64,000 bases of DNA from Escherichia phage A221. The translations under genes were made by a program, and so were the position numbers. Positions within the stretch are counted from its first letter, which is position 1. Every line of letters begins with the position of its first letter. This document shows, in pieces, positions 3,662 through 61,114 of this stretch. The notes below the pieces were generated by a model, which was given only the letters and a program-made list of their open reading frames with translations, had not been told where the DNA came from and made no database searches. The DNA is taken from sequence record ON862890.1, one strand, 5' to 3'.

Positions 3662-3690
3662 AACCCCGCTCTGGCGGGGTTCTTATTATA
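3662..3690 (+). terminator. intrinsic terminator-like hairpin
   Basis: ACCCCGC-tctg-GCGGGGT stem-loop followed by tcttatt. Confidence 0.55.
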
Positions 3691-3718: not shown

Positions 3719-3725
3719 GCTAAAT
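3719..3725 (+). promoter_or_regulatory. late-promoter-like motif CTAAATA(cccc)
   Basis: CTAAATAcccc 38 nt upstream of tailspike 2 start; recurs before seven other genes. Confidence 0.5.
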
Positions 3726-3762
3726 ACCCCATATTGGCAAATCCTCTATGGGGTATCTTCAA

Positions 3763-6051
3763 ATGACCAGAAACGTCGAGAGCATCTTTGGAGCGGTCGT
3801 AACAGCTCCGCACCAGATTCCATACACTTACACAGCAACGGGCGGAGAGAAGTTTATCTCCCTCCCTTTCTACCCTGTCACTGGTATAGTCACAATCAAC
3901 GGTGGTATGCAAGTTCCGTTAGACAACTTTGAAATCGATGGAAATACGTTGAATCTCGGACGCGCATTATCCAAAGGTGACGTTGTGTTCTGTCTGTTTG
4001 ACAAGATTCTGTCTCCAGAAGATTATAAAACCGGGATTCGAATCTATAAGTTTAAGGCTATAGGAGGTGAAACCGAGTTCACTCCTGATTACACATCTTA
4101 TGGAGTCCAATCTCTTTATATCGGTGGTGAGTACAAAACACCCGAAATTGAATATTCCTATGACAGCGCGACAGGGAAAGTGTCTTTGCAAACTGCACTG
4201 ACTGCAGGTGTTTGGGTAGTCGCTGAGATGTCTGTTAAACAACCGAATATCAGTCCGTTGTTTGACCGAAGTATTCAAGAAATCGCCCGTTCAGCTAATG
4301 TAAAAGACTCTGAAGTAATTCTCAGCACTGATACTACTCAGTCCCTCAATGGTAAGAAGGTTGTTTACTCTGTTAATGAACAGAAGTCTTATGGCTTGCC
4401 GTCGTTACCGTCCAATGTCTATATTGGCTCCGTATCCAATGGGCAGTTAACCTATAATCCTGGTCCTATTACAGTCCCTCTAGTTGAAGTGCCTGATTCG
4501 GCTGCCAAGTTGAAGAGTGAACTTGCTGCCAATACTGGGTCAAGTATGATTCATACTAGCTCCGGTGACACTGTTGAAGAATCTCTTGTTAAGTTAAAAG
4601 ACTCTTTCCGATTCGTAACTCCAGAACAGTTCTATGAAAATCATCCAGGGGAAACTGACTGGGCCGTTATGATAAATGAGGCATACGCATATGCTCGTTC
4701 AAATAATAAGAGCGTGTTGCTTGCCAATGACTACAATATATCTTCAAGTGTCATACACTATGATGGTTTGAATGTTTTATGCACAGGTAGAATCATAGCT
4801 TCCCCTTCCGGGAATTACACTTTTACCACTGCGCAAAGTAACACAGAGAACGCTGCTTATATTATTACTACAGAAAATGGAGTGTTTAATAATGCTAAGT
4901 CTGCCTCTGTTACGGGACTAACCTTAACATACACCGCGAACAGAGAGCCTTCCGGCTACACTGACCAGCATATTGCTTCGAAAGGAGTAGTAATTACCGA
5001 CATAGCTAATGTGTATATACGCAATCTACAAACTTTCGGCTTTCTTAACGGTGGGGTTGACGTTGGAGGGGTTTCTGGGAAAGGTTACGAAATAGTAATC
5101 GACAAATGTTTATCATGGATTCACGCATGGGAGGATTCAGAGAAGATCGGTTTCCGTTCTAATGTAACCGATTCAACATTCAAAGATGTAGTAACCGTCG
5201 CTTACGGTATCGGAATTCACGATGTAAAAGGTAGTGGTACAGTTTTTATCAACCCTCACCCGTGGGGTTATCCTGTAACTTCAACCGATTCATCCCAAAA
5301 ATACCCTAATATGCAGTGTAAAATACCGTTTCTCATTTCTGGTAGCGCTTCAACTTTCATTAGGCCTTACGCAGACACTGTGACAAAAATTAACAGTTCA
5401 CTTGGCTCAAGTAGGTCAAACGGTGGTGTAGGGTTTTACATAGAGGGTTGGCGTAATAAGATAATAGCGGGGAATGCGTTGATCCATCCGGAAGACGTAA
5501 ACACAAACATGGCTTTGGTGTATTTTAAAGGAGAGTCTGCCAGAAATGAGATTGAAATTGCAGATGTAATAAATCCATCTAAGTTAATTGTTGAAAGAGC
5601 ATCATACGACTCTGGTCATCAAGATGCATTGTTTACTAACCTTGTTAGGCTCCCTGAGTATATCGCTGGTAATTTAAGCAATCTTACAGGAAGCATATCA
5701 TTCGATGGCGCAGGAATAACTTCTTCCGGCACATATAGTTTACGCAGAGACGGTGAATACATAGACATTTCTTTACTTATTAATGTGACGGCAATTTCCA
5801 GCCCTTCGGGTTCGTTATCCGTTACTCTGCCTCGTGGACTTAAGTGCTATTTTGGGCCTACATCAGAACCAAGCCAGAATTCCTGCTTTGGGAACATCAA
5901 CCAAAGCAACATTGGGGTAATAGCTGTTTTGAACGGCAGCTCTATAGAATTCTTTTATAAAACGGCAAATGGTTCAAGAACCCAAATTAACGCAGCAGGT
6001 GTATCAACTGGCGCTCTTGAGCTATCCATACGTGGTAAGATTAGTAATTAA
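3763..6051 (+). CDS. tailspike protein 2 (putative depolymerase)
   Basis: 767-aa track ORF from 3748; ATG 3763 preferred by ggggtatcttcaaATG context matching gene 1; CTAAATA motif 28 nt upstream; Ser/Thr/Gly/Asn-rich beta-helix-like C-terminal half. Confidence 0.55.
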   Translation: MTRNVESIFGAVVTAPHQIPYTYTATGGEKFISLPFYPVTGIVTINGGMQVPLDNFEIDGNTLNLGRALSKGDVVFCLFDKILSPEDYKTGIRIYKFKAIGGETEFTPDYTSYGVQSLYIGGEYKTPEIEYSYDSATGKVSLQTALTAGVWVVAEMSVKQPNISPLFDRSIQEIARSANVKDSEVILSTDTTQSLNGKKVVYSVNEQKSYGLPSLPSNVYIGSVSNGQLTYNPGPITVPLVEVPDSAAKLKSELAANTGSSMIHTSSGDTVEESLVKLKDSFRFVTPEQFYENHPGETDWAVMINEAYAYARSNNKSVLLANDYNISSSVIHYDGLNVLCTGRIIASPSGNYTFTTAQSNTENAAYIITTENGVFNNAKSASVTGLTLTYTANREPSGYTDQHIASKGVVITDIANVYIRNLQTFGFLNGGVDVGGVSGKGYEIVIDKCLSWIHAWEDSEKIGFRSNVTDSTFKDVVTVAYGIGIHDVKGSGTVFINPHPWGYPVTSTDSSQKYPNMQCKIPFLISGSASTFIRPYADTVTKINSSLGSSRSNGGVGFYIEGWRNKIIAGNALIHPEDVNTNMALVYFKGESARNEIEIADVINPSKLIVERASYDSGHQDALFTNLVRLPEYIAGNLSNLTGSISFDGAGITSSGTYSLRRDGEYIDISLLINVTAISSPSGSLSVTLPRGLKCYFGPTSEPSQNSCFGNINQSNIGVIAVLNGSSIEFFYKTANGSRTQINAAGVSTGALELSIRGKISN

Positions 6052-6098: not shown

Positions 6099-8396
6099 AT
6101 GAACGAAATGTTCTCCCAAGGCGGTAAAGGCTCTACTGGTATTCTTACCAATAAGCAAGCCATTGCTCGTAAGTTTGGTGTTAAGCAGAATGAAGTAGTC
6201 TACTTTTCTGTGGGAGTGGATTTAGGTGGTTACAAAGTTATTTACGATAAGACTACTCAGCGTGCTTATTCATTACCTGTACTTCCGGTAGGAACCACTG
6301 CTGTAAGCCTTAGCAAACAGGCAATCCTGGTTCATTCAGCAGGTACAGTTGATTTGGGTGAACTGGCTGTCACACGTAGGGAATTCGTGTGTTTATCTGA
6401 CTCTTTTGCCACTGGTTTGGTAGTGAATACCAGAAATGAGCTTCTGGTGCATAATGGCATTGGTTATACCTATTTAGGTACTCTACCTGTAACAATTACC
6501 GCAGGAACTAATCCAGTTGACAATGCGGACTGGAAGCCACAGACAGATCCTAATTTACGGGAAGAATTAGCGTCTGACTCCGGCTTCCAGCTGGTTCCGT
6601 CTGTTGAAAAGCAACGATGGCTTTACGCAGGGGATGTGCGTGCTTTTGGAGTTGTCGGTGATGGGTCTGATGAGGCATCTAGTTTACAGTTAGCCATTAA
6701 CTCGGGTAATGTTTTTGTTCCCCCGGGCATGACGGTTTCTCATTCACAAGTTAACATACCAAAAGGTACAATTTTTACTTTCGGTCACGATGCTGGGTTG
6801 ACATCATTGACCGCTAATGCTCTTAATTTTGTCAGCGAGAGCCAATTCAGCTTGCTTTCCCCCGCAGCTTTCGGAGCAACGTCCATCACATTAACATCTG
6901 AGGTGACAGGAACTGGGTATACCCGGGCGTTGATAATACGCACTGAGGACACAAGTGACGCTTGGTATATTGCCAACGCACAGAATCCGGATGTAACCGG
7001 ATACCAAGGCGAATCTTTTTTAATCTCGTCCATATCAGGTGCTACCGTAAATTTAGCAACGGCTTTACCGTGGGACCTAACTACCACCAATTCGGTTATT
7101 TATCTTATAAAAGGCAACGCTACTAAGTTCATCGGGGGAATCTTAAAAAATTCTGCGTCAGGGTCTAGCTACATGTACCAATCTGTGGGGGCTTCGCTTA
7201 TAGAGTTCCATGGTACTGTTTTTGATTATAATGGAAATGGCGGTTCAAGGCATGATAACGCGTACGGTGTGGTGTACCACAACACTACCCATACCGGGCG
7301 TGTCGGAAATGGTAATATATTTTTTGGTTACGGATCTACAGATTGTACTGTTACAGGTACGACCCACATTGGAGGGACTGGTGGGGATGCGCAAATAATA
7401 TCTTATGCTGGCTGCCGTAACATCCGTACATCCCATAACACCCTAAAACCTACGGCCAACAACGGAGGTATATATTTTGGTGCAAAATGCTTCGACTGCA
7501 ACACCCATGCTGATTATATTAAAGGCGGAAAGTATGGGGTTATGGGGGCATTTGGTGCTCAGCGTATTGTTGTGGACTCGCTGGCGGCAGACGATCAAGT
7601 ATCAGGCGTTATCTTTATGGAGCAATGCCAGAACTTTACCATCACAAACCCGTCTATTAGATTCATAAAGACTGGCACTCAAACAACCGCTGCGATATTA
7701 ATTAAGGACTGTGATTATGTGACAGTGGATGCAAATGTCCCTGTAAATACAGGGGCGAACGGGTATATAGTCAGTATGTATAGCGCGCCTGCATACGCCC
7801 TGACAGTTAGAAAAAATATAAACATTACGGTAAAAGGTACTGGCAGTGTATACCTTACTAGCCCTATGACCAATTTCTCGATTAAAGACTGTTTAACATC
7901 TGGCAATATAACAGTTTACTACGCCAATGGTACGTCTACTTACGGCAGGGTTACGCGTAATAGTTGCCGGTTTTTAGTAGCTCAAAGTTTCCAATATTGT
8001 GACATAGATAGTAACACCATTGCGGGGGCTTCTGATTCTGAGGGTATACGCCTCGGTGGTAACTGTAGATGGAACAACGTATATAGAAACAAGGTTAGCG
8101 GGGTTACTACGGCATTCTTCGTTAACTCAGCACCCGCAAATCTATACACGAATGCATTTCATGATGATAACGTAATAGATTACTCAACAGTAACCACCTT
8201 CGTATCATCTCAGACTGGAACCACCACGCCAGTTACTGGAGCTTTAAACCCTGCTCCAGTAAGGAATTTCTTTCTCCCGGCAACAGGTTGGCAGGATAGC
8301 CCTACGGTAAAAAGAACTGTTAGTGGCTGGAGGCATAAAGGCACTACAACAGGCACAGCGTCCGATTGGTTTACTATCCCCTCGCCAGAAGCGTGA
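6099..8396 (+). CDS. tailspike protein 3 (putative depolymerase, pectate-lyase-like)
   Basis: 765 aa; RBS aaagagg; N-terminal module about 60% identical to residues 355-445 of ORF 15-3317; AFGVVGDGSDEASSLQLAINSG motif typical of pectate_lyase_3-type tailspikes. Confidence 0.65.
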   Translation: MNEMFSQGGKGSTGILTNKQAIARKFGVKQNEVVYFSVGVDLGGYKVIYDKTTQRAYSLPVLPVGTTAVSLSKQAILVHSAGTVDLGELAVTRREFVCLSDSFATGLVVNTRNELLVHNGIGYTYLGTLPVTITAGTNPVDNADWKPQTDPNLREELASDSGFQLVPSVEKQRWLYAGDVRAFGVVGDGSDEASSLQLAINSGNVFVPPGMTVSHSQVNIPKGTIFTFGHDAGLTSLTANALNFVSESQFSLLSPAAFGATSITLTSEVTGTGYTRALIIRTEDTSDAWYIANAQNPDVTGYQGESFLISSISGATVNLATALPWDLTTTNSVIYLIKGNATKFIGGILKNSASGSSYMYQSVGASLIEFHGTVFDYNGNGGSRHDNAYGVVYHNTTHTGRVGNGNIFFGYGSTDCTVTGTTHIGGTGGDAQIISYAGCRNIRTSHNTLKPTANNGGIYFGAKCFDCNTHADYIKGGKYGVMGAFGAQRIVVDSLAADDQVSGVIFMEQCQNFTITNPSIRFIKTGTQTTAAILIKDCDYVTVDANVPVNTGANGYIVSMYSAPAYALTVRKNINITVKGTGSVYLTSPMTNFSIKDCLTSGNITVYYANGTSTYGRVTRNSCRFLVAQSFQYCDIDSNTIAGASDSEGIRLGGNCRWNNVYRNKVSGVTTAFFVNSAPANLYTNAFHDDNVIDYSTVTTFVSSQTGTTTPVTGALNPAPVRNFFLPATGWQDSPTVKRTVSGWRHKGTTTGTASDWFTIPSPEA

Positions 8397-8760: not shown

Positions 8761-8785
8761 AAGCCCCTTCGGGCTTATTTCTTTC
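8761..8785 (+). terminator. terminator-like hairpin inside noncoding spacer
   Basis: AAGCCC-cttc-GGGCTT followed by atttctttc, 20 nt before the late promoter motif. Confidence 0.45.
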
Positions 8786-8806
8786 TATTCCTCGGTTGGT
8801 TGTATA

Positions 8807-8813
8807 CTAAATA
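8807..8813 (+). promoter_or_regulatory. late-promoter-like motif CTAAATA
   Basis: tataCTAAATAtctc 35 nt upstream of ATG 8848. Confidence 0.45.
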
Positions 8814-15053: not shown

Positions 15054-15078
15054 GGCGGGATTACCCGCCCTTCTTTTA
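15054..15078 (+). terminator. intrinsic terminator-like hairpin
   Basis: GGCGGG-atta-CCCGCC followed by cttctttt after gp13-like stop. Confidence 0.5.
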
Positions 15079-15317: not shown

Positions 15318-15324
15318 CTAAATA
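15318..15324 (+). promoter_or_regulatory. late-promoter-like motif CTAAATAcc
   Basis: 24 nt upstream of ATG 15348. Confidence 0.5.
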
Positions 15325-15347
15325 CCTTCAAAATTGAGGGTATCGAT

Positions 15348-15998
15348 ATGGCCACTTCTAAATATTTCAACGCCACCAATCACCAAGGCACACAAAAGCT
15401 GATTGAAGATTTGGTACAGGAAATGATTGAGTTGCGCGGGATAGACATCAAGTATATACCCCGTTCCATCGTTGAAAAATTTCCTATCACCAACGATGCT
15501 AACCACAGGTTCGACCAGGCGTTCGACATCGAAGCGTACATGCAGGATTATCAGGGCTTCAACACCCAGATGTGGGAGAAGTTTGGGGGTATCCAATTGC
15601 AAGACGAAGTGACGTTCTCTATCTCGCGCCGCCGATTTGCCGAGGTGATAGGCAACGGTGTTGGGTTTGAACAACAACCTCAGGAAGGTGACCTGATCTA
15701 TCTACCACTGGCGAACAAGATCTTCAAGGTCAACAACCCGAACAACGATGAAGACTTCATGCAATTTGGCAAATGGTATACGTTCTCTCTACCGTGCACG
15801 TTGTTCCAGTACGGCAACGAAAACTTCGATACGGGCGTTCCGGAGATCGACGATATCGACAAACGTCTGTCCATCTTGGACGAAGAGAACGAACCGGACG
15901 TGTACAAGGATTCTTCTCTGCAGACCGACAATGCTTTAGCAGATGATCTTGAGAAGGGGCTTGCAACAGACAATATGAAGATCGACTTTGGAGAATAA
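15348..15998 (+). CDS. putative neck protein (gp14-like by position)
   Basis: 216 aa; CTAAATA motif at 15318; lies between gp13-like and gp15-like genes; no confident motif match by eye. Confidence 0.45.
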   Translation: MATSKYFNATNHQGTQKLIEDLVQEMIELRGIDIKYIPRSIVEKFPITNDANHRFDQAFDIEAYMQDYQGFNTQMWEKFGGIQLQDEVTFSISRRRFAEVIGNGVGFEQQPQEGDLIYLPLANKIFKVNNPNNDEDFMQFGKWYTFSLPCTLFQYGNENFDTGVPEIDDIDKRLSILDEENEPDVYKDSSLQTDNALADDLEKGLATDNMKIDFGE

Positions 15999-19600: not shown

Positions 19601-19607
19601 CTAAATA
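19601..19607 (+). promoter_or_regulatory. late-promoter-like motif CTAAATA
   Basis: Immediately after terminase stop, 43 nt upstream of sheath ATG 19650. Confidence 0.5.
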
Positions 19608-22044: not shown

Positions 22045-22070
22045 CCCCGCTGAGGCGGGGTTTTAGTTTT
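22045..22070. terminator. bidirectional terminator between convergent genes
   Basis: CCCCGC-tgag-GCGGGG followed by ttttagtttt; between gene 21681-22037 (+) and endonuclease gene (-). Confidence 0.6.
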
Positions 22071-23847
22071 CCAGTTCATACCGGATAAGACCACACCCCC
22101 AGATACGCCCCAACCCGGCTTCTATCGCCAGCATATCCTCTGTTTTACCTTCTACATCGTATCCAAGTTTAAGGAATTTCTCTTTCCTGAAATTGAATTT
22201 GTGTATACGTGAGCCATAGCCCGGAGTCACATATTTGTAATCAGGGGGAAGGATTTCCTTTTCAACAAATCCGTTATTCAGGTAAACATTTTTCAGACGA
22301 CTGACAACACAACGATCACCAAAAGAATATACTGTCTCACCCCGATGTCGAGCGATATAATATTTCAGCAAGCGTGAGAATGCGCCATGACAATTGTTAG
22401 AAGCAAATCTCACCAATTCAATACCATGCGTCCGTTTGGTAAACAACATCACCGCCTGGATATTCCCAGTTTTGTCTACAAGGTGTATATAATCTGTCGC
22501 CACCACACCACCTTGTATATGGAATCGGTCGAGAAAGTCCTTGGACGTCCTATAGGAGCCTTCTAAAATGATATGTTGGCGAGCGTATGACAATGGTTTC
22601 CCTATCCCCAATTTTGCTTTAAGGAGTGATTTAACCACTTCCCGTTTGTCACGCCACTCATCTTCCCAGATATGGATTAATTGAATACCCTGGGCTTCAC
22701 AGTACATGGTCTTTTCAAGATGGTAGTCTTTGTATCGATGTTTCTCTGTATGCCAGTACAAGCCGTTAAATTCTATTGCCAACTTATGTTCTGGGCAGTA
22801 TATGTCTATCTGGCGTGTGGTCACCCTTCCGTCGAACATTTTACCTCTGAGGACGGAGAAATTACCAGATTCGCATATAACACCCAATGAATCCAGGTAT
22901 GAACATATTTCTATTTCTGGCTGCGTTTGGCTTTGGCTGCTGGGGTACGTGAAAGAGTTCCTATATTCTTCAGAAGAGAAATAGTGAGGTACGCCGTATT
23001 TTTCTTTTGAAATGATCCTGGTATTGACCTGGCTTCTATCCCATATAGCCTTTACCTTCAACGGATAATCAACCCCATATTTTAAGACGCATGTTTTCTT
23101 TCTCTTTTCTATAATGGAATTGAGGAACATTGGATGATCCACACCATAGATCTTCCTCCAAGTCTCAATCACCCTTTCCCTCACTTCTGGCATTTTCATG
23201 ACGTGTGATACGCCATAGCGTTCCATGACGGAAGCAGCCACTCTGTCCTTTATAACATCAGACTTCATAGGGTGGTCGACCCCATATTTCTTAAGGACAG
23301 TTTCCCGCGACTTTTGTTTTACTTCTTCCAGTTGGAATGTGTTGGCTACGCCATATTTCTCTGATATGGCGTTTTCTAGGTTGACCCGTTCTGAGCCTCC
23401 CGCCTTCATTGATTTTCGTTGGCATTCTTCGGAACAAAACTTTTTGTATCTGGGTGGTTGGGCTTCCATTTCTAAGCCAACGTCAGCACCGCAAGTGACA
23501 CACTGCGACTTCGGAATATCGTACAGCCAAGCAGTTATCGCTTGTGGTTCTTCTAATAGGTCGTTGTGTGACACCACGTATCCAACAACATCAACCCCAG
23601 TATGGGCCGTGAGTAGGGGATGAGAGATAAGTTTGTAGTTCAACGAACCATCTTTCTTCCTGAGTTTACTATCAACCCAAGAGCGGCATTCGGTTTCGGT
23701 CGTCGGGATGTTATCCAACAAACCCGGATTGCGTTTCATCGTTCCCAGCATGAATGATTTACATTCGTCACTACAATACAACGCAGCCTTCCTGGTTGGG
23801 GTGAACGGTTTGTGGCAGCATGAACAATTTTTATCGGGGAATGGCAT
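22063..23847 (-). CDS. putative homing endonuclease, Hef-like (zinc ribbons + KYGV repeats + PD-(D/E)XK-like nuclease domain)
   Basis: Minus strand; ATG at 23847 with GAGGA RBS (track codon 1 is GTG); CxxC pairs; six imperfect repeats with core KYGVxHPM; EFNGLYWHTE...IHIWEDEW restriction-endonuclease-like motif; paralog of 29838-31826. Confidence 0.65.
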   Translation of the reverse strand: MPFPDKNCSCCHKPFTPTRKAALYCSDECKSFMLGTMKRNPGLLDNIPTTETECRSWVDSKLRKKDGSLNYKLISHPLLTAHTGVDVVGYVVSHNDLLEEPQAITAWLYDIPKSQCVTCGADVGLEMEAQPPRYKKFCSEECQRKSMKAGGSERVNLENAISEKYGVANTFQLEEVKQKSRETVLKKYGVDHPMKSDVIKDRVAASVMERYGVSHVMKMPEVRERVIETWRKIYGVDHPMFLNSIIEKRKKTCVLKYGVDYPLKVKAIWDRSQVNTRIISKEKYGVPHYFSSEEYRNSFTYPSSQSQTQPEIEICSYLDSLGVICESGNFSVLRGKMFDGRVTTRQIDIYCPEHKLAIEFNGLYWHTEKHRYKDYHLEKTMYCEAQGIQLIHIWEDEWRDKREVVKSLLKAKLGIGKPLSYARQHIILEGSYRTSKDFLDRFHIQGGVVATDYIHLVDKTGNIQAVMLFTKRTHGIELVRFASNNCHGAFSRLLKYYIARHRGETVYSFGDRCVVSRLKNVYLNNGFVEKEILPPDYKYVTPGYGSRIHKFNFRKEKFLKLGYDVEGKTEDMLAIEAGLGRIWGCGLIRYELEN

Positions 23848-23895
23848 AATAAATATCCTCACTTTGGAGTATTTTAACCCCCATTTATTTCAAAA

Positions 23896-23902
23896 CTAAA
23901 TA
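23896..23902 (+). promoter_or_regulatory. late-promoter-like motif CTAAATA
   Basis: 27 nt upstream of tail tube ATG 23929. Confidence 0.5.
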
Positions 23903-26223: not shown

Positions 26224-26260
26224 TTCGACTAAGTATAGAAAACATTTAGAGGATATGAAC

Positions 26261-27436: not shown

Positions 27437-27443
27437 CTAAATA
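27437..27443 (+). promoter_or_regulatory. late-promoter-like motif CTAAATAc
   Basis: 28 nt upstream of scaffold ATG 27471; followed by CTGAA/TTCAG inverted repeat. Confidence 0.5.
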
Positions 27444-28319: not shown

Positions 28320-28410
28320 TTTTAGCAGCCACAGCCCTCGAAAGGGGGCTTGATTTTGAACTACTAAGTAATTTCAACTTAACTGAATATCAATGTAAGG
28401 AATGACCATC

Positions 28411-29733
28411 ATGGCTAAGAAACTTGTTACCGAACAAATGCGCGAGCAGTGGCTGCCAGTTCTTCAGAAAGAATCTGAAAGTATCCAGCCGCTTTCTGCC
28501 GAAAACGTTGCCGTCCGTCTGCTGCAAAACCAGGCTGAGTGGAACGCCAAAAACCTGGGCGAATCCGACGCTCCTGGCTCCGTGAACGCCTCTGTGGGCA
28601 AATGGCAGCCAGTCCTGATCGACATGGCCAAACGTCTGGCTCCGGTCAACATCGCGATGGACTTCTTCGGTGTTCAGCCGCTGTCTGGTCCTGACGGTCA
28701 GATCTTCGCACTGCGTGCTCGCCAGGGCGTTGCAGACGGCTCCAACACTGCCCAGTCCCGCGCTGAGCTGTTCATGAACGAAGCCAACTCCGGTTACTCC
28801 GGTGACGATACTGCACAGGCTGGCGACCCATCTGGCTTCTCCCAGACTGAGATCGAAGGTTCCGGCGCTGCTACCACCACCATCGGTAAAGGCATGTCAA
28901 CTTCCGACGCTGAACTGCTGGGCACCACCACCAACCCATGGGCACGTGTTGGTATCACCGTTCAGAAAGCAACCGTGACTGCGAAGTCTCGCGGCCTGTA
29001 CGCTGACTACAGCCACGAACTGCGCCAGGACATGATGGCGATCCACGGCGAAGACGTTGACAGCATCCTGTCCGACGTGATGGTAACTGAAATTCAGGCA
29101 GAGATGAACCGTGAGTTTATCCGCACCATGAACTTCAGCGCAGTACGCTTCAAAAAATTCGGCACCAACGGTATCGTAGACATCTCCACTGACATCTCCG
29201 GTCGTTGGGCGCTGGAAAAATGGAAGTACATGACTTTCATGCTGGAAGTTGAAGCGAACGGCATCGGTGTTGACACCCGTCGTGGTAAAGGCAACCGTGT
29301 TCTGTGCTCCCCGAACGTAGCATCCGCTCTGGCGATGTCCGGCATGCTGGATTATGCTCCGGCGCTGCAGGAAAACACCAAGCTGGCGATTGATCCGACT
29401 GGTCAGACCTTCGCTGGTGTGCTGTCGAACGGTATGCGTGTATACATTGACCCGTATGCAGTAGCAGAATACATCACCCTGGCATACAAAGGTGCAACCG
29501 CGCTGGATGCTGGTATCTTCTTCGCACCATACGTGCCGCTGGAAATGTACCGCACCCAGGGTGAAACCACCTTCGCACCACGCATGGCGTTTAAAACCCG
29601 CTACGGCATCTGTGCTAACCCATTCGTTCAGATCCCAGCGAACCAGGATCCACAGGTCTATGTGACTGCGGATGGTATCGCCAAGGACACCAACGTGTAT
29701 TTCCGTAAAGGGCTGATCAAAGGCCTGTTCTAA
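28411..29733 (+). CDS. gp23: major capsid protein (T4 gp23-like)
   Basis: MDFFGVQPLSGPDGQIFALRARQG matches the gp23 FDICGVQPMNSPTGQVFALRA region; ATG 28411 preferred (aagga RBS) over in-frame ATG 28402. Confidence 0.9.
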   Translation: MAKKLVTEQMREQWLPVLQKESESIQPLSAENVAVRLLQNQAEWNAKNLGESDAPGSVNASVGKWQPVLIDMAKRLAPVNIAMDFFGVQPLSGPDGQIFALRARQGVADGSNTAQSRAELFMNEANSGYSGDDTAQAGDPSGFSQTEIEGSGAATTTIGKGMSTSDAELLGTTTNPWARVGITVQKATVTAKSRGLYADYSHELRQDMMAIHGEDVDSILSDVMVTEIQAEMNREFIRTMNFSAVRFKKFGTNGIVDISTDISGRWALEKWKYMTFMLEVEANGIGVDTRRGKGNRVLCSPNVASALAMSGMLDYAPALQENTKLAIDPTGQTFAGVLSNGMRVYIDPYAVAEYITLAYKGATALDAGIFFAPYVPLEMYRTQGETTFAPRMAFKTRYGICANPFVQIPANQDPQVYVTADGIAKDTNVYFRKGLIKGLF

Positions 29734-29837: not shown

Positions 29838-31826
29838 ATGATTCATATATGCCGGACATGCAAAACCTCATTCGTCAATGCCCAGTCAAAGGCCGTCTAC
29901 TGTAGTGTTGATTGCAGAACCTTTTACCAAACAGTTGGTATCAAATTCTCCCCAGAGTTAATGTCGGACGCCAAATTTATTCAAACTGAAGATGACTACA
30001 AAGACTTCATCCGTGAATATTTCTATATGAAGAATGGCAACCTGAATTACCAACTACTATCTTCACCCCTGTTGTCATCTTACCTTGGCGTAGACCCCCT
30101 CAAATATGCCAACCAGCACAACTCTGAAGAATCCGTGAACACCCGTGTATTGGTCTGGTTACACGACGTCAAACCAACACCTTGTATCACCTGCGGTGCT
30201 AGAACTTCTGTCGAGATTAAGAAGTCTATCCCATCCTACCGGAAATATTGTTCGGAGGAATGCTATGCCCAATCAATGAAGTTGGGTGGTGAAGCCCGTA
30301 AAGTCTTGGACAAGACAATACTGGACAAATATGGCGTGGAAAACGTGTTCCAGGATGAATCCATAAAAGGGAAGGCACGGTTGACCATGCTGCAGCGTTT
30401 CGGCGTAGAACACATTATGCAGTCTGAAGAGGGGCGGCAGCTATTCAGAGATTCCGTTATGGAAAAATATGGGGTTGAGCACCCGATGCAGTTGGAAGAG
30501 ATCAAACGGCGCGCATGGGATACCCTCGGTGCTCGGTCTTGGTATGCTACTTCAGAAGGTAAAGCTGCGCGGGAGAAGGCATTTGGTGGATACCAAGGCG
30601 GTCATCCGATGCGTGACAGGGGTGTTATAGAGAAGATAATCTCAAACAATCTCAAGCGGTATGGTGTTGAATGGCCTGCTCAAGACCCTGTTATCAAAGC
30701 TAAAGTTGTAGACACCATGTTGGAAAAATATGGTGTGTCCCACCCATTACAAATACCAGAAGTGAAAGCCAGAGTCAAACAAAGTCACCAAACAAAGTAC
30801 GGTAGATTCTATTTCAATAGACATGAGGTTATGTTATTGGCTTCGGAACGTTCTAAAGAGACATGTGTTAGAAAATATGGTGTACCATATGCGTTGCAGA
30901 ACAAATCCATGTGGGAACACATTACGTCATCCCTTAATTCGAAATCAAAACCAGAAATAGAAATATCTGATTGGCTCACTTCAATGGGGGTTGCCCACAA
31001 ATGCTCCGACTTCACCCTCCTAAACAATATGAATTGCCAGGACGGTGGAACTCGACGCCAGATAGACATCTATTGCCCAGAACACAAACTGGCAATAGAA
31101 TTTAATGGCCTGTATTGGCACAGTGAGATACACAAATATCGCCGTTATCATCTCGAAAAGACAGAGGCATGTGAAGCACAAGGCGTTCAGCTGATACACA
31201 TCTGGGAAGATGAGTGGCATAACAACCCAGAGATCGTGAAAGGGTTGCTGGCTGCCAAACTCGGGATCAAGAAGCCATCCGGGTACGCCCGTCAGTGTTA
31301 TGTAGAGGAAGGTAAGAAGTCGGATATTCTAGAACTCCTGGCCTCTCAACACATACAGGGCACCATTCATTCGGCCACGCATTACCTTCTCCTCAGAGAT
31401 AAGAGAGACAACCGGGTTCGGGCTGTCATGACCTTTATCAAACGTGTGGTGAAGGGGGAACAGTGTATGGAACTTACGAGGTTTGCCTCCGACGGCATTC
31501 ACGGGGCGTTCTCTAAACTGCTGGCGTACTACAAGGAACATCTCTGGGATGGCGTGAAGACTTTCTCCTTTGGCGATAGGTGTGTTGTTAGTCGGTTGTC
31601 CAACATTTATCTTTCTCACGGGTTCGTCGAGGAAGAAATACAAGACCCGGATTACAAATATCACAAACCAGGGACTCTCATGCGGGAGCACAAGTTTGGA
31701 TTCAGAAAGGCAGACTTTGCTCGCATGGGCTATGGCGTAGAAGGTAAGACAGAAGATCAGTTAGCAACCGAAGCCGGGCTGGTCAGGATTTGGAATTGTG
31801 GACTGATCAAATATGTCTTGAACTAA
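29838..31826 (+). CDS. putative homing endonuclease, Hef-like (paralog of 22063-23847)
   Basis: 662 aa; N-terminal CxxC zinc ribbons; seven KYGVxHPMQ-type repeats; EFNGLYWHSE...IHIWEDEW nuclease motif; C-terminal about 200 aa clearly homologous to the minus-strand copy; own TATAAT-like box at about 29803. Confidence 0.65.
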   Translation: MIHICRTCKTSFVNAQSKAVYCSVDCRTFYQTVGIKFSPELMSDAKFIQTEDDYKDFIREYFYMKNGNLNYQLLSSPLLSSYLGVDPLKYANQHNSEESVNTRVLVWLHDVKPTPCITCGARTSVEIKKSIPSYRKYCSEECYAQSMKLGGEARKVLDKTILDKYGVENVFQDESIKGKARLTMLQRFGVEHIMQSEEGRQLFRDSVMEKYGVEHPMQLEEIKRRAWDTLGARSWYATSEGKAAREKAFGGYQGGHPMRDRGVIEKIISNNLKRYGVEWPAQDPVIKAKVVDTMLEKYGVSHPLQIPEVKARVKQSHQTKYGRFYFNRHEVMLLASERSKETCVRKYGVPYALQNKSMWEHITSSLNSKSKPEIEISDWLTSMGVAHKCSDFTLLNNMNCQDGGTRRQIDIYCPEHKLAIEFNGLYWHSEIHKYRRYHLEKTEACEAQGVQLIHIWEDEWHNNPEIVKGLLAAKLGIKKPSGYARQCYVEEGKKSDILELLASQHIQGTIHSATHYLLLRDKRDNRVRAVMTFIKRVVKGEQCMELTRFASDGIHGAFSKLLAYYKEHLWDGVKTFSFGDRCVVSRLSNIYLSHGFVEEEIQDPDYKYHKPGTLMREHKFGFRKADFARMGYGVEGKTEDQLATEAGLVRIWNCGLIKYVLN

Positions 31827-31830
31827 AAGA

Positions 31831-31870
31831 ACATTTCAATAACGGGGCGAGAGGTATTATTGCCCTCTCT
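31831..31870 (+). repeat. TTCAATAA-hairpin cassette, copy 1
   Basis: tttcaataacggggcgagaggtattattgccc, about 90% identical to copy at 32091-32130. Confidence 0.7.
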
Positions 31871-31889
31871 ATTAATCGAGGAAATCACA

Positions 31890-32090: not shown

Positions 32091-32130
32091 CAGTTTCAAT
32101 AACGGGGCGAGAGGTATTATTGCCCCGTCT
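32091..32130 (+). repeat. TTCAATAA-hairpin cassette, copy 2
   Basis: tttcaataacggggcgagaggtattattgccccgt with perfect ACGGGGC/GCCCCGT stem. Confidence 0.7.
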
Positions 32131-32150
32131 ACTTATCCGAGGGTTGTACC

Positions 32151-34030: not shown

Positions 34031-34070
34031 CATACCATAAATAATTGAATACACACAGCGGAGATACATC

Positions 34071-34241
34071 ATGTTTGTCGTCATCAATCTGTTCTGTTAT
34101 ATCTTCACGGCGTACTTCTTGGGCGCGGTAGGGATCGAGACCTACAATGACCTGAAGGATGGGGAATACGCCAACCGAATGGTTTATGTCAAGAAGTTTG
34201 TTCGTAAGTTCTGGTCCAACTTCGTTTACAAACTACCATGA
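34071..34241 (+). CDS. small hydrophobic protein (56 aa)
   Basis: Not in track (under 60 aa); ATG with ggaga RBS; translation MFVVINLFCYIFTAYFLGAVGI... indicates one TM helix. Confidence 0.3.
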   Translation: MFVVINLFCYIFTAYFLGAVGIETYNDLKDGEYANRMVYVKKFVRKFWSNFVYKLP

Positions 34242-34244
34242 TCC

Positions 34245-34251
34245 CTAAATA
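34245..34251 (+). promoter_or_regulatory. late-promoter-like motif CTAAATAccccc
   Basis: 29 nt upstream of ATG 34280; 5' arm of AAATACCCCC/GGGGGTATTT inverted repeat. Confidence 0.5.
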
Positions 34252-34279
34252 CCCCCATCATCCATGGGGGTATTTTCTT

Positions 34280-35008
34280 ATGAACGCACAGATCTATGAC
34301 GCCCTATCACAGGGCAACGCCTTTACCAATCCTCTCCCGTCCCTCAGCAGCGCCTCACAGGGGTTAATCACCAGTGGTAAGGCGACTACAGCGTCACTGG
34401 CTAACACCGGAAATGCGCAGATTCAGGAAGCGCTGACGGCAGGTGGGTTGACTACAGCCAAACTCAACGAATCTACAGCAATGTTCAACTCAGCCAACAA
34501 CAGCATCACTACTTTGAACAACTATGGCGACCAGTCAGTGAAAGAGGCATATTCCCGCATCGGTACATCTGTGTCGTATAAGTCCGCCCTGAAGTCTATA
34601 GGTCGAGAACCGAACAACTGTGATCTGATCAATAATGCATTTGGGGTTATTCAGAACCTCGGCAAACAGTGGATCAACACCATGCAAAGTGTTCTCACAA
34701 CTATCACAAACAAGATGAATGAGCTGGCTGAGTTGGTAGCTCAGGGCGTCGGTGCTGGTCTTGATGCTATTCAGGCACTGGCTGCTGAAGTTACTCAAGC
34801 CATCGACACCGCTGTCGCATCAGTAGCCTCTATTGCTCAGGACATCACGAACGGTATTGCAGCAGAGTTAGCCCATATCCAAGACATGGTTGGTAAGTGT
34901 CTTAACTTCTCTTTTGCCAACGTGATCTCAGAGTGGGCGAAAGATATCTGCGCCGGAGGTGTCATCAACAGCATTGGTTCCGATAATCTGAAGAACGCAC
35001 TGAAGTAA
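34280..35008 (+). CDS. hypothetical protein (Ser/Thr/Ala-rich, possible minor virion protein)
   Basis: ATG at M15 of track ORF 34238, downstream of CTAAATA motif at 34245 and in gggggtattttcttATG context. Confidence 0.45.
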   Translation: MNAQIYDALSQGNAFTNPLPSLSSASQGLITSGKATTASLANTGNAQIQEALTAGGLTTAKLNESTAMFNSANNSITTLNNYGDQSVKEAYSRIGTSVSYKSALKSIGREPNNCDLINNAFGVIQNLGKQWINTMQSVLTTITNKMNELAELVAQGVGAGLDAIQALAAEVTQAIDTAVASVASIAQDITNGIAAELAHIQDMVGKCLNFSFANVISEWAKDICAGGVINSIGSDNLKNALK

Positions 35009-35687: not shown

Positions 35688-36200
35688 ATGTCCAACGTAC
35701 AATTCAAGAACGAAAACCCTAATTTCGCGGCGTCCGATAAGTGGCGTCTGACTATCGGAGACCTTATACTCCTAACCCGTAACATACACGACTTCAGTAT
35801 ACCAGGAGTGTACTCCGAAGGCATCGATGGTCCGTCTCCTGGTGACGTGTTGGTTTCTATACCTTCAGAGCGTTTAACCTATGACCCCGTAGTATTTACT
35901 TTCGTTATAGACGAGGACTGGAAATCATGGTTACAGATCCACCAATGGATTACCAGCAACGTCGGCAAGGATTTGCCTGTCAGCAAGGACATTACCATTG
36001 AATTGCTGGATAACCTCAACCGACCGATTGGCCTCACTCTCGTGCTGGAGGAAGCCCGCCCGACTGCTTTGGACAACGTACTGGTGGACGTAGACGCGGC
36101 TGTACCTCAGCTGGTGACGACAGTGACCTTCAAGTTCCAACAGCTGGTTCCACTATCTGGTGGGAAGGCGATTGATTCTAATCCGCAAAATGCGGTATAA
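35688..36200 (+). CDS. hypothetical protein
   Basis: ATG at M117 of track ORF 35340 with aaaggtg RBS; upstream part of track ORF overlaps divergent minus gene. Confidence 0.4.
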   Translation: MSNVQFKNENPNFAASDKWRLTIGDLILLTRNIHDFSIPGVYSEGIDGPSPGDVLVSIPSERLTYDPVVFTFVIDEDWKSWLQIHQWITSNVGKDLPVSKDITIELLDNLNRPIGLTLVLEEARPTALDNVLVDVDAAVPQLVTTVTFKFQQLVPLSGGKAIDSNPQNAV

Positions 36201-36230
36201 TTCTATGACATTGACAAGCTGGGATATTTT

Positions 36231-36698: not shown

Positions 36699-37445
36699 AT
36701 GGCATCTCTCCAGGATCTACGCAAGCTGAATGACTTCGAAAACCGTCATTACACATTTCAGCAATACGAACTTCCTCATAAGGAACTGGAGTGTGTTACG
36801 ACGGAGAATGGTCGTCATTACGTTTCACCGTCTGGTGTAAAACTGACATCCGTCACGACTATGCTGGGGCGCACTGGAGATCATGAATGGCTTGAGTCTT
36901 GGAGGAAGAAGCTGGGCGCAGAGGCCGCTGACCTTGAGACCATGCGCTGTGCTGACCGAGGGGAGAAGCTGCACCTTGCGTGTGAACTGTATCTAAAGAA
37001 CCGCCCAATGAAAGAAGTGTTGGAAGCGGCTGGCGAATACATGTTCATGTTCAAGCAGCTGTTCCCTTACCTGAACAAGATGACAAAGATCTATGCTCAG
37101 GAGATCCCATTATATAGTGAGGTGCTTGGTCTTGCAGGTCGTGTAGACCTTATCGGGGTTTATGAGGGTAAACCTGCTGTCATCGACTTCAAGACATCGA
37201 ACACCATGAAGACGCGGGGCATGATCGAGGATTACAGTATCCAGCTGTGCTTATATTCGGTCATGTTCCAGCAGATGTTCGGCGTCAAGATCACCCGCCT
37301 CATCAACGTGATTGCCAACGAGTCTTCCCCTCTACCAACCGTCATTGAGTTCAACCGTGATGACATTCTGACAAAGATGTTTGAGCGTGTTCGTCTGTAT
37401 CATCGCATGGATAAAGAACAAAACGGAGTCTGGCCGGATCACTAA
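36699..37445 (+). CDS. PD-(D/E)XK-family nuclease (putative exonuclease)
   Basis: 248 aa; GRVDLIGVYEGKPAVIDFKTS contains a D...D-x-K signature typical of the restriction-endonuclease-like fold. Confidence 0.5.
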   Translation: MASLQDLRKLNDFENRHYTFQQYELPHKELECVTTENGRHYVSPSGVKLTSVTTMLGRTGDHEWLESWRKKLGAEAADLETMRCADRGEKLHLACELYLKNRPMKEVLEAAGEYMFMFKQLFPYLNKMTKIYAQEIPLYSEVLGLAGRVDLIGVYEGKPAVIDFKTSNTMKTRGMIEDYSIQLCLYSVMFQQMFGVKITRLINVIANESSPLPTVIEFNRDDILTKMFERVRLYHRMDKEQNGVWPDH

Positions 37446-37448
37446 ATA
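37442..37448 (+). promoter_or_regulatory. late-promoter-like motif CTAAATAcccc
   Basis: Overlaps TAA stop of upstream gene; 26 nt upstream of UvsW-like ATG 37474. Confidence 0.5.
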
Positions 37449-37473
37449 CCCCATAATCCTTGGGAGATTTTGT

Positions 37474-39731: not shown

Positions 39732-40400
39732 ATGCAAGAGATCACTCTCTCCGAACGTACACTTCAGTTGCTGGCCAACTTTGAGACCATCAACCCATCT
39801 ATCGTTCTGACACCGGGCAAGATGCTGCGCAGTATTAATGATTCTTCTACTGTGATCGCCGTGGCGCAGATCGAAGAAGACTTCCCGTTTGAGTTCCCGA
39901 TTCTGGACCTGACCAAACTTCTGGCCATCCAGCGCCTACCTTCCTTCAAAGGTGCCAAAGCCGAATTCCATCAGGACTACATCCTGTTGAAAGGCGAAAG
40001 TTCTCAGCTGCAATTCTGGCGTTCTGCTAAAGAACTCACTGTTGTTCCGGCTGACACCATTGAACTACCGTCTGTCGACTTTGAAGCGATCATCACTCCA
40101 GAGAAGATGAAAGAACTGACCCGCGCCTGTTCTACCCTCGGACACAAGACTGTGCGCCTGGTTGCTCAGGGTGGCAAAACTCGCCTGGTTGCAACCACCA
40201 CTACCCTGGACAACTCCAACAACTACACTGTTGAGCTGGGTGAAACCGCGCTGCCGGACTTCGTAATGCCGCTGGATGTTGCCAACCTGAAAATGATCGA
40301 AGGCAACTACACTCTGCGTGCATGTGCTGATCTACAGATGGTGAACTTCCAATCATCCGACGCGACGATCAATTACTTCGTCGGCGCACAGATTGAGTAA
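39732..40400 (+). CDS. gp45: sliding clamp (T4 gp45-like)
   Basis: 222 aa; N-terminal LQLLANFETINPSIVL resembles gp45 LLKNFATINSGIML; followed by gp44/gp62/regA-like genes in T4 order. Confidence 0.8.
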   Translation: MQEITLSERTLQLLANFETINPSIVLTPGKMLRSINDSSTVIAVAQIEEDFPFEFPILDLTKLLAIQRLPSFKGAKAEFHQDYILLKGESSQLQFWRSAKELTVVPADTIELPSVDFEAIITPEKMKELTRACSTLGHKTVRLVAQGGKTRLVATTTTLDNSNNYTVELGETALPDFVMPLDVANLKMIEGNYTLRACADLQMVNFQSSDATINYFVGAQIE

Positions 40401-40481
40401 TCAATCTCCAGCCTGATGCTATAATGTGTGGGCGGGGGCGTTCCCCGCCTATTTGAAATGATTCTTCTACACGAGGCTGAA

Positions 40482-41475: not shown

Positions 41476-41898
41476 ATGGCCGCCCTTGGATTGTTCGATT
41501 ACCTGGCTGCTCTGAACAGCAGCAAAGAAAACCTTTTGCGGTCTGATGACCCAGAAGTGTTGAAAGGATTCGACCCGTTTATGACGCGGCGTGGTTTAGC
41601 TCAGAGCAAAGACACTCTAGTGGCTGCGCAACAGATGAATAAGCTACATGCTATCACTCCATGGATGCAATGGTCATATGCCTTTTACACCATTCCGGCT
41701 CGGAAACGCTACGACAAATGGTCTAAGAAAGGTCCGATTGATCCTGACGTGAAGTTACTCTCAGAGTACTTCTACATCAGCATGGAGAAGGCATCGGAGT
41801 ACGTCCGTTTCTTGCCGAAGGAAGTCCTGGCCGAGATACGCGAGAAGATGAGACGCACTGAGCTGAACGCCAAAGCGAAACCGCGCAAGGCTAAATAG
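41476..41898 (+). CDS. gp62: clamp loader small subunit (T4 gp62-like)
   Basis: PARKRYDKWSK resembles gp62 PRGKRYGKWAK; position after gp44; ATG 41476 with ggaag RBS preferred over 41443. Confidence 0.6.
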   Translation: MAALGLFDYLAALNSSKENLLRSDDPEVLKGFDPFMTRRGLAQSKDTLVAAQQMNKLHAITPWMQWSYAFYTIPARKRYDKWSKKGPIDPDVKLLSEYFYISMEKASEYVRFLPKEVLAEIREKMRRTELNAKAKPRKAK

Positions 41899-51354: not shown

Positions 51355-51413
51355 TTCTATAACTTTGGGCGGGGTATGATTACCCCGTCTATTTGAAACC
51401 AAGAGACTATATC

Positions 51414-54695: not shown

Positions 54696-55562
54696 ATGCT
54701 CCTGACCAAAACAATCGCTGCGGCGATTATCGAAAAGAATAAGGCTTTTGCCCCCAACGCAGCCAAAGTTATGTTGGTACACGAAGACGCTCGCGTGATC
54801 TTCGCCGAGAAGTTCGAGATGGGCGCGAAGTTCTGGTATGCCGACAACTTACGTGAGAGCAAACTTCAGGGTATCATCCACAAACTGACTCTGGTCGCCA
54901 AGCGTAATGACCAGGGTGACTGGGTCGGCGTTTCTGACTTCAGTACGAAGATCACCCCAAAGGCTCCGCTTTCTCGTCAAGAGCGCATTCTACAAGCCCA
55001 GGAAAAGCTGCGTGCGGCTCGGAGTACTCCAAAGGCGAAACCAGATGCAAGCCCTGTCATCAAGCCAGCGGTTGTTCCTAAGTCCAAATACCTCCCTCCC
55101 GTGAGTCAAAAGGCTGTGGAGCAATTGGTTGAGAAGCGCAAGGGTGACGTTGTGATGAAGTCTGACTCTTCAGTGGAGCCGTTCAAGCCGGATCCAGCAG
55201 AAGTACAGGCACTAGCAGAAAAGGTAAAGAATTCACAATTCATTTCCCTGCGTGAACTTGAACCGCCTACTCGCCGTCGTGTCGCCAACGAGCTGTTTGT
55301 GTCGTTCAGGTCGGATGGCAAGATCGTCCTGTGCAAAGCCCTGCGCGATGCAATCCCTTGGACAACTCTGAACATGATGGTCACTCGCGACTTCAAGCGT
55401 TTTGGTATCATGCAAGGCAAGGACTACAACGTCAACCAGAGCGGGACTTATGTTAATCGCGCCATGTGCGACAAATTGACCTTCCCAGAAGACACCGGAA
55501 CGATCCGTGTCGTTCTGAATTGGGATGACAATCTGAACATGTATGTTGGCGATTTCCAATAA
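54696..55562 (+). CDS. hypothetical protein
   Basis: ATG one codon after track GTG start; gaagga RBS; 288 aa. Confidence 0.4.
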   Translation: MLLTKTIAAAIIEKNKAFAPNAAKVMLVHEDARVIFAEKFEMGAKFWYADNLRESKLQGIIHKLTLVAKRNDQGDWVGVSDFSTKITPKAPLSRQERILQAQEKLRAARSTPKAKPDASPVIKPAVVPKSKYLPPVSQKAVEQLVEKRKGDVVMKSDSSVEPFKPDPAEVQALAEKVKNSQFISLRELEPPTRRRVANELFVSFRSDGKIVLCKALRDAIPWTTLNMMVTRDFKRFGIMQGKDYNVNQSGTYVNRAMCDKLTFPEDTGTIRVVLNWDDNLNMYVGDFQ

Positions 55563-55618
55563 TCAATAACCTCGGGCGGCTTATCATAAAGCTGCCCTTT
55601 CATTTGAGTGACTATATC

Positions 55619-60322: not shown

Positions 60323-61114
60323 ATGGGAATGAACTTCGTGGACAGAGGGGAGAATGTCGTCAAATATTTCACAGACGAAGATAACGAGCGTGTCATCAGT
60401 ATCCTTCGTGATTGGATCCCTGCTCGTAAGAAGGCTCTGGCTGAAGGCACCAGGCTTCCAAAGATCCCCAACTATGTTGCTCTACAGGTCCAGCGCATCA
60501 TCACCAAGATGAGCACCCGCTACAACTATCGCGACTATCCCTTCCGTGAAGACATGGTCTCTGAAGCAATAGTCAACATCTTGCGCTACCTCCACACATT
60601 TGACGTCGAACACATTGGAAAGAAAGGGAAGATCAACTTCTTCTCTTGGGTGACAATGTGTGCTGATCGATCATTCGCTCGTAAACTGAATATCGAAGAA
60701 GAGCACACGTACATTAAATTGCGCTCATTTGAAGAGGCGGGTGGGTTCGCAGGCCTGGCAGACGATCCCGACTTCCAACAAGAGGTCTTTGTTGATGCTA
60801 CAGGAATTGGCATGGACTTCCGTGAACGTATCGGCAACTTTGAGAACAAAAAGGACGCTCAAAGGCAGAAGGAGCGAGAGAAGGTGGAGGCAGCTCGTCT
60901 CGCAGAATCGAATAAAAAGATTGCGAAAGGCATACTTCAATACATGGCGCAGGCTAAGAATACGGTAACAGCGCAGGCCGAAGACAATTCAGATCAAGAC
61001 TTCGGCAAAACCCAATTCAATCTGGAAGATGATATCTGTGCGATGGAACCAGATTGGGAAGCCCTCAAACAAAGATTAGAAGAACGGGAGAAAAAGAACA
61101 ATGGCGATTGCTAA
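60323..61114 (+). CDS. gp55: late-transcription sigma factor (T4 gp55-like)
   Basis: YVALQVQRIITKMSTRYNYRDYPFREDMVSEAIVNILRYLHTFD parallels the T4 gp55 region as remembered; precedes gp47/gp46 as in T4. Confidence 0.65.
   Translation: MGMNFVDRGENVVKYFTDEDNERVISILRDWIPARKKALAEGTRLPKIPNYVALQVQRIITKMSTRYNYRDYPFREDMVSEAIVNILRYLHTFDVEHIGKKGKINFFSWVTMCADRSFARKLNIEEEHTYIKLRSFEEAGGFAGLADDPDFQQEVFVDATGIGMDFRERIGNFENKKDAQRQKEREKVEAARLAESNKKIAKGILQYMAQAKNTVTAQAEDNSDQDFGKTQFNLEDDICAMEPDWEALKQRLEEREKKNNGDC

Follow-up and report, generated by a model that had tools for sequence, protein, structure and literature searches.

Late promoters of Escherichia phage A221 that may lie within hairpins hiding the ribosome-binding sites of read-through RNA

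In Escherichia phage A221 (sequence record ON862890.1), the gene for the tailspike is preceded by a short A+T-rich motif, CTAAATA, which, together with the C-rich tract that follows it, provides one arm of an inverted repeat; the other arm contains the Shine-Dalgarno (SD) sequence of the gene. This raises the question of which RNA would fold into the corresponding hairpin: the late mRNA itself, or RNA initiated further upstream that reads through the promoter. The question was addressed computationally in a 64,000-nucleotide (nt) stretch of the genome, hereafter the window, in which the same arrangement recurs. On the evidence set out below, it is rather probable that, at several genes, a gp55-type late promoter is built into the 5′ arm of a hairpin by which the ribosome-binding site (RBS) is hidden, and that this hairpin would form only in RNA derived from upstream.

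The window is ~99% identical to Escherichia phage PC3 over the segments compared, and belongs to a ViI-like phage of the Ackermannviridae, subfamily Aglimvirinae. The virion module is present, as is part of the replication module, in the gene order found in the genomes of Agtrevirus, Limestonevirus, Kuttervirus and Taipeivirus. A gene for a gp55-type late sigma factor was located through the annotation of phage CBA120 and the PHROGs database, and a gp45-type sliding clamp gene through the annotation of the collinear PC3 and CBA120 genes (Table 1). In phage T4, gp45 is a partner of late transcription. The third protein, gp33, has been reported for relatives.

CTAAATA occurs 11 times in the window, 10 times on the + strand, against a mean of 4.7 in shuffled sequence; none of 100 shuffles reached 11. 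Late promoters that depend on gp55 have a short A+T-rich −10-like element and no −35 element, and eight of the copies are placed as such promoters would be, 30–49 nt ahead of the start codons of late-type genes when counted from the start of the motif. The preliminary description of this DNA had recognised the same eight sites; the first of them begins at 3720 instead of 3719, and the range of 24–43 nt given for the distance was slightly narrow, there being 49 nt between 19601 and the sheath start codon at 19650. All eight sites read (a)CTAAATA, an A+T-rich, −10-like sequence related to the T4 late element TATAAATA, which occupies −13 to −6, and identical at −12 to −6 to the late consensus of Aeromonas phage Aeh1, in which CTAAATA, from −12, is the predicted late promoter motif, its positions having been assigned in silico. 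The longer form CTAAATAcCcc was listed, without further role, as a “unique regulatory motif” of ViI-like phages in the paper on phage EspM4VN, where the copy at 70604–70614 is the orthologue of the window’s 3720 site. These matches, and the gp55-type gene in the window, bear out the identification of CTAAATA as a late-promoter motif.

The other three copies were rejected as promoters: that at 15358 lies inside the open reading frame (ORF) of Hc2, that at 6471 is on the minus strand, and that at 41891–41897 overlaps the stop codon that ends the gene preceding regA, with CTAAGTA in nine of nine relatives, the A for G being specific to the window. The form aCTAAGTA, with the third A replaced by G, stands in promoter-like positions before the major head protein gene (28364–28370) and before a small gene lying between those for the portal and the prohead core (26229–26235), and takes the place of CTAAATA at the orthologous Hc2 site of Serratia phage KNP4; this variant of the late motif is probably functional.

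At three sites, 3720, 15318 and 34245, the promoter is part of a strong hairpin. The arms are 10 nt long and 100% complementary at 3720 (fold −16.3 kcal/mol, z −2.7 against dinucleotide shuffles, as for all fold z-scores here), and 12 nt and 100% complementary at 34245 (−17.2 kcal/mol, z −3.7), in both cases longer than the repeats first noted. The repeat at 15318 is 9/10 complementary as DNA and forms, as RNA, 9 base pairs with one G.U (−10.2 kcal/mol, z −3.0); it stands as a hairpin, with a loop of 4 nt where 2 nt had been described. An SD-like run of G lies inside the 3′ arm at each of the three, and the annotated start codon follows the stem by 4–7 nt. The earlier statement that the 3′ arm covers the SD and start region thus holds for the SD and, at 3720, for the in-frame ATG (3748); no arm covers an annotated start codon. 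The arm pairs differ from site to site: CCCCAUA/UAUGGGG, CCUUCAA/UUGAGGG and CCCCCAU/AUGGGGG. Elsewhere pairing is weak: that at 37442 is interrupted and not significant alone, CUCUA past the motif can pair weakly with the SD UGGAG at 8807, UCUUUC past the motif can do so with the SD GAAGGA at 19601, and a small CUGAA/UUCAG hairpin adjoins the SD at 27437. No hairpin was found at 23896, before the tail tube gene.

Table 1. Features of the window and of the rest of phage PC3 that bear on the late-promoter hairpins
Feature	Position	Strand	Remarks
Intrinsic terminator	3662..3681	+	separate, upstream of 3720 module
Late promoter core CTAAATA (−12 to −6)	3720..3726	+	before tailspike; predicted +1 ~3732
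5′ arm ATACCCCATA	3724..3733	+	~−8 to +2 of promoter
3′ arm TATGGGGTAT	3747..3756	+	includes SD-like GGGG 3750–3753 and in-frame ATG 3748
Tailspike gene	3763..6051	+	start 7 nt past 3′ arm; same start in 6/8 fetched annotations
Late promoter core	8807..8813	+	before large vrlC-like protein, start 8848
Canonical terminator	15054–15069		upstream of 15318 module
Late promoter core CTAAATA	15318..15324	+	before head closure Hc2, start 15348; predicted +1 15330
5′ arm AUACCUUCA	15322..15330	+	
3′ arm UGAGGGUAU	15335..15343	+	contains SD GAGGG; start codon 15348
Late promoter core	19601..19607	+	before tail sheath, start 19650
Late promoter core	23896..23902	+	before tail tube, start 23929
Late promoter core	27437..27443	+	before scaffold, start 27471
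Promoter candidate TTCAAT-N14-TATTAT	32095..32120	+	identical copy 31835–31860
Late promoter core CTAAATA	34245..34251	+	before gene 34280; predicted +1 A34257
5′ arm AAATACCCCCAT	34247..34258	+	
3′ arm ATGGGGGTATTT	34264..34275	+	contains SD GGGGG; then TCTT, ATG 34280
Gene 34280, function unassigned (phrog_2114)	34280..35008	+	“putative structural protein” in some relatives
Sigma70-like candidate, TTCAAT-N14-TATAAT type	36176..36201	+	before uvsY-exonuclease-uvsW
Late promoter core	37442..37448	+	before UvsW-like helicase, start 37474; predicted +1 37454
Weak interrupted pairing AAAU..CCCC / GGGA..AUUU	37444–37453 / 37461–37470		−7.2 kcal/mol, z −0.45, not significant alone
gp45-type sliding clamp gene	39732..40400	+	annotation of collinear PC3 and CBA120 genes
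gp55-type late sigma factor gene	60323..61114	+	phrog_234 “late sigma transcription factor”, E 3e-52; 78% identity to CBA120 protein
Late-motif hairpin hiding SD, TTAAATAcctctgca...tgtggaggtattt	PC3 L026 9204–9246	+	−16.1 kcal/mol
Late-motif hairpin, ATAAATAtcctcgc...gcgaggatatt	PC3 L027 18352–18312	−	−15.9 kcal/mol; before 55-aa membrane protein
Late-motif hairpin, CTAAATAtcttca...tggagat	PC3 L027 35484–35536	+	−11.6 kcal/mol

Which RNA would carry both arms depends on where transcription starts. If the geometry of T4 and Aeh1 is applied, +1 falls 6 nt past the last A of the motif, and an A is present at −1, +1 or +2, past the pyrimidine tract, at 8/8 sites. With this geometry the 5′ arms would span approximately −8 to +2, so that a late transcript would retain at most 1–3 nt of a 9–12 nt arm. 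The proposal of the preliminary description, that a late mRNA would base-pair, through its 5′ end, with its own RBS, is accordingly not borne out, as far as the homologous systems are a guide: they place the predicted start at the 3′ edge of the 5′ arm, and starts downstream of that arm were what the description had itself named as telling against its proposal. The predicted late leaders fold with ordinary energies, no better than shuffles (z −0.11 at 3720, +0.46 at 15318, +0.25 at 34245 and +1.07 at 37442). The predicted cost of opening the region from SD to start codon was compared between this late RNA, beginning at the predicted +1, and a long RNA with 100 nt of upstream sequence added. 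It is 16.9 kcal/mol in the long RNA versus 7.5 in the late RNA at 3720, 15.0 versus 7.1 at 15318, and 20.6 versus 6.1 at 34245, an extra cost of ~8–14 kcal/mol at the three strong sites, where the predicted probability that the SD is unpaired in the long RNA is 0.00; at 37442 the values are 10.8 and 6.5 kcal/mol (+4.3 in the long RNA). Since folding and opening cost are high in the long RNA and ordinary in the late RNA, the hairpin is probably a property of read-through RNA and not of the late mRNA, which reverses the first interpretation.

From these observations we infer a start position, a supply of read-through RNA at the relevant times and an effect on translation that would combine as follows. 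Polymerase carrying the phage late sigma factor would recognise (a)CTAAATA at −12 to −6 and start ~6 nt past the last A. Because that point is the 3′ edge of the arm in which the promoter lies, the late transcript would lack this arm and leave the SD free. RNA from upstream, whether early or middle RNA from promoters of the TTCAAT-N14-TATAAT type, read-through of a terminator, or polycistronic late RNA, would contain both arms and would fold into a hairpin of −10 to −17 kcal/mol over the SD, so that it would be poorly translated. At 34245 such RNA would probably be terminated too, given the T-rich run after the stem. The net effect would be that the gene is expressed solely from its own late promoter.

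Candidate sources of upstream RNA, oriented like the modules they face, lie before the 34245 and 37442 sites. The sigma70-like candidate at 36176 is likely to be the source of RNA reading into the uvsW site. T4 uvsW belongs to the late genes, and its expression early in infection would do harm; this fits a late-only design, although the pairing at 37442 is weak. The candidates at 32095 and 31835 are the likely source of RNA reading towards the 34245 hairpin. They are two identical 26-nt copies of TTCAATAACGGGGCGAGAGGTATTAT, 260 nt apart (31835–31860 and 32095–32120), each before a small ORF, and look like a duplicated promoter cassette. A T4-like ATAAATA (34037–34043) stands 34 nt before a 56-aa gene (34071–34241) that ends 4 nt before the 34245 module, and RNA from this putative late promoter would run into the hairpin. 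At 3720 and 15318, the hairpins would act on terminator read-through or on polycistronic late RNA.

A scan of viral contigs gave 9 loci and a metagenome scan by protein alignment only 3 near-identical ones, so that the diversity followed here is that of ~15 genomes. The 3720 module precedes the orthologous tailspike gene in the Kuttervirus phages Det7, CBA120, Marshall and Vi01, and in EspM4VN (Agtrevirus), JA15 (Limestonevirus), and UPM2146 and K751 (Taipeivirus). Its arms are invariant in 9 phages of 4 genera, while the loop varies through substitutions and indels, and in several Ackermannviridae genomes the similarity to the window starts exactly at the 3720 motif. Each of the five genera sampled retains the 34245 stem, with 100% of alignment cells paired among 8 distinct sequences; these include Miltonvirus KNP4, in which the encoded protein is only 46% identical, the loop length is altered, one U-A pair has become C-G by compensatory change and one C-G has become U.G. 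The −12 base of this promoter is C in the window, with TTAAATA in Taipeivirus and Kuttervirus and ATAAATA in KNP4, TAAATA being constant. Miltonvirus KNP4 lacks the Hc2 hairpin, which Agtrevirus, Taipeivirus and Kuttervirus have retained. The records of the Klebsiella phages UPM2146 and K751 place the tailspike start within the 3′ arm, at the ATG that corresponds to window 3748; six other fetched records have it further downstream, at ATGACCAGA, a start conserved in every record.

The complementarity is matched site by site. Three further late-motif hairpins were found in the rest of PC3 (Table 1), with core arm pairs CCUCUGCA/UGUGGAGG, UCCUCGC/GCGAGGA and UCUUCA/UGGAGA, which differ yet are again complementary; the second precedes the gene of a 55-aa putative membrane protein, which may be connected with lysis, a possibility that recalls T4 gene e. 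In a swap test, the 15 nt upstream of each predicted start were joined to every site’s leader. Over the eight window sites the native arms give a total stabilisation of 48.9 kcal/mol, compared with a mean of 25.6 (standard deviation 7.0) for the permutations, of which a fraction of 0.001 out of 40,320 do as well, and over all 22 candidate sites, in the window and the rest of PC3, the test gives z −3.4 (p 0.0013). A contiguous stem of −10 kcal/mol or lower that reaches the SD window is found at 5 of 53 gene starts, namely 3 of the 8 late sites versus 2 of the 45 others (Mann–Whitney p 0.049 on this measure).

The arrangement has precedents. In T4 genes e, soc, 49, I-TevI, I-TevII, I-TevIII and segB, and in Aeh1 mobE, the late promoter lies in the 5′ half of an RBS-sequestering hairpin; long early or middle transcripts fold and are translationally silent, whereas late transcripts lack the 5′ strand and are active, as has been tested experimentally for e and I-TevI. 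The layout predicted here is that of this set, Aeh1 also having the CTAAATA form of the motif. It differs in belonging to the Ackermannviridae, in being known from sequence alone, and in the genes concerned, which are the tailspike, Hc2, an unknown gene annotated as structural in some relatives and, weakly, uvsW; these are mostly structural genes with late-type upstream neighbours, not a lysis or homing-endonuclease gene within an early unit. It differs further in that the arm consists of the promoter core itself plus a C-rich tract. With respect to the CTAAATAcCcc motif of ViI-like phages, the sequence is the same and the positions are orthologous. Neither the motif, which has been published, nor the mechanism, a textbook device of T4, is new; what is added is the hairpin in Ackermannviridae, since the searchable literature describes neither it nor the complementary SD arm, and gives no transcript starts for this family. 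Rfam 15 covariance models gave 0 matches at gathering score across the whole window.

Several results weigh against hairpins that act on read-through RNA. A strong hairpin is present at only 3/8 late sites of the window, and it is missing from at least one full CTAAATACCCC site elsewhere in the genome. At 29486–29447 (−) of PC3 L027, a complete CTAAATACCCCATATGGCTAAC leader clearly related to the first 22 nt of the 3720 tailspike leader precedes a 152-aa gene and has no complementary 3′ arm, so the C-rich extension also occurs free of a hairpin. The 14 sites outside the window did not pass the swap test when taken alone (p 0.17), because their arms share AAATA/TATTT and are partly interchangeable. 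With two looser controls, the stabilisation given by any 15 upstream nt and the number of pairs reaching the SD window, the late sites were not separated from other gene starts (p 0.10 and 0.07), and the initiation regions of many genes of this phage pair with upstream sequence; the lack of separation is due in part to the terminators and other promoter-hairpin modules that precede many genes. Of the tests for chance or by-product, three point one way and two are weak. At 34245, 10 of the 12 pairs are invariant, there is one compensatory change, and 102 of 500 shuffles do as well, so that covariation is underpowered and is not used as proof of structure; the arms could have been conserved through constraints on promoter and SD, on top of generally conserved leaders. 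The early-versus-late logic is less obvious at 3720 and 15318 than at T4 e, their upstream neighbours also being late-type genes, with terminators 40–250 nt upstream. Finally, mapped transcript 5′ ends were found in the searchable literature for none of the Ackermannviridae, and the start position rests on homology with T4 and Aeh1.

It may be asked whether the hairpins are mainly terminators or 3′-end stabilisers of the upstream unit, the overlap of promoter and SD being a consequence of intergenic compaction. At 34245 a G+C-rich core is flanked by AAATA/TATTT and followed by TCTT, at the end of a cluster of small ORFs, and TATTTT lies within the stem when the G+C core alone is considered; this site is like an intrinsic terminator overlapping the next promoter, with its G+C stem, T-rich tail and promoter in the 5′ arm, and probably does also terminate transcription from the small-ORF cluster. 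Clear terminator hairpins that contain sigma70-like promoters, at 32095, 40400, 51355 and 55562, lend the idea further weight, as do EspM4VN, Vi01 and JA15, in which only ~10 nt, and no other terminator, separate the end of the upstream tailspike gene from the 3720-type module. However, the hairpins at 3720 and 15318 have no T run after the stem (CTTCAAATG and CGATATG) and stand past separate terminators of their own, a terminator scan called none of the three, and the constant coincidence of the 3′ arm with the SD is left unexplained. As a general account we regard termination as unlikely, while at 34245 it is compatible with the silencing of read-through RNA.

A pyrimidine-rich promoter tract opposite a purine-rich SD might also pair incidentally and without consequence. 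The weak pairings at 8807, 19601, 27437 and 37442 (z −0.45) are of this kind, upstream pairing of initiation regions is common in the genome, and one CTAAATACCCC site lacks a hairpin altogether, so for the weak sites such an origin is plausible. For the three strong sites it is not: their stems reach beyond the C and G tracts to pair promoter-core bases with their complement (ATA/TAT, AAATA/TATTT), with z-scores of −2.7 to −3.7, the tailspike and 34280 stems persist over 4–5 genera despite turnover of the loop, and the arms are matched to each site. As an explanation of the whole, incidental complementarity is improbable.

More improbable still is the self-pairing model, in which late transcription begins at the motif itself or before it, and the 5′ end of the transcript pairs with its own SD, damping or delaying translation or stabilising the 5′ end. 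The hairpins are real, strong and conserved, as it requires, mapped starts for Ackermannviridae to set against it were not found in the searchable literature, and the region after the motif is C-rich, not A+T-rich as in T4, so that the geometry could differ somewhat. Nevertheless, CTAAATA aligns base for base with −12 to −6 of the T4 and Aeh1 promoters in a phage that has a gp55 homologue, a start upstream of a −10-like element would be unprecedented for a sigma-dependent bacterial RNA polymerase, the A near the predicted start at all eight sites is as expected for initiation there, and self-occlusion of abundant structural mRNAs at 15–20 kcal/mol would be costly. That the repeats are DNA operators for a dimeric late-promoter regulator, as I-TevI acts at its own T4 promoter, has the precedent of operators overlapping late promoters, as these repeats do, but is scarcely credible, and was rejected along with a cruciform, since arm sequences differ and spacing varies from 4 to 13 nt, leaving no common binding site, and one arm always coincides with the SD, which an operator would not need.

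The silencing of upstream RNA by late-promoter hairpins may be one case of something wider. Sigma70-like promoters, the other motif of the family, TTCAAT(AAC)-N14-TAT(A/T/G)AT, lie in G+C-rich hairpins followed by T runs at 32095–32140, 40400–40455, 51355–51400 and 55562–55610, and also at 31835–31880, with the −10 hexamer in or beside the loop; that at 55562 reads GGGCGGCTT-ATCATA-AAGCTGCCC-TTTCATTTG. They look like terminators that overlap the next promoter, and only upstream RNA would fold them. The 3720 and 15318 modules are unlike such overlapping terminators in lacking a T run, in standing past separate terminators, and in having the SD as 3′ arm. It is conceivable, but rather doubtful, that both promoter classes, late (N)TAAATA and sigma70-like, are systematically placed in upstream-RNA-only hairpins across the Ackermannviridae, each module stopping or silencing incoming RNA and restarting expression, and that the family-specific C-rich extension “cCcc” of the late motif is kept at least partly as an anti-SD arm rather than as a sigma contact. 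A sigma70-like match of the form TTCTAT-N14-TATACT at 8783–8813 overlaps the late CTAAATA at 8807 (TATACTAAATA), directly past a terminator at 8761–8776, and these may be dual overlapping promoters.

Should the hairpins act as proposed, some late genes of ViI-like phages, including that of the receptor-binding tailspike, would be translationally insulated from leaking upstream transcription. For the tailspike this would be relevant to host range and phage engineering, as a tailspike cassette moved without its module, or placed under a foreign upstream promoter, could be silenced. The annotation of start codons could be resolved where records use the in-stem ATG, and CTAAATAcCcc would gain a mechanistic reading. 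The classic T4 mechanism would be extended to a second gp55-encoding phage family and to structural genes, the principle itself not being new.

Two large homing-endonuclease genes, so annotated in PC3, are inserted among the structural genes of the window: one lies between the sheath and tube genes (22063–23862, −) and one after the major head gene (29838–31826, +). The tail-tube leader reads CTAAATATTTACAC... in the window and PC3, versus CTAATTAGAATTG... in other genera, where a different endonuclease lies upstream.

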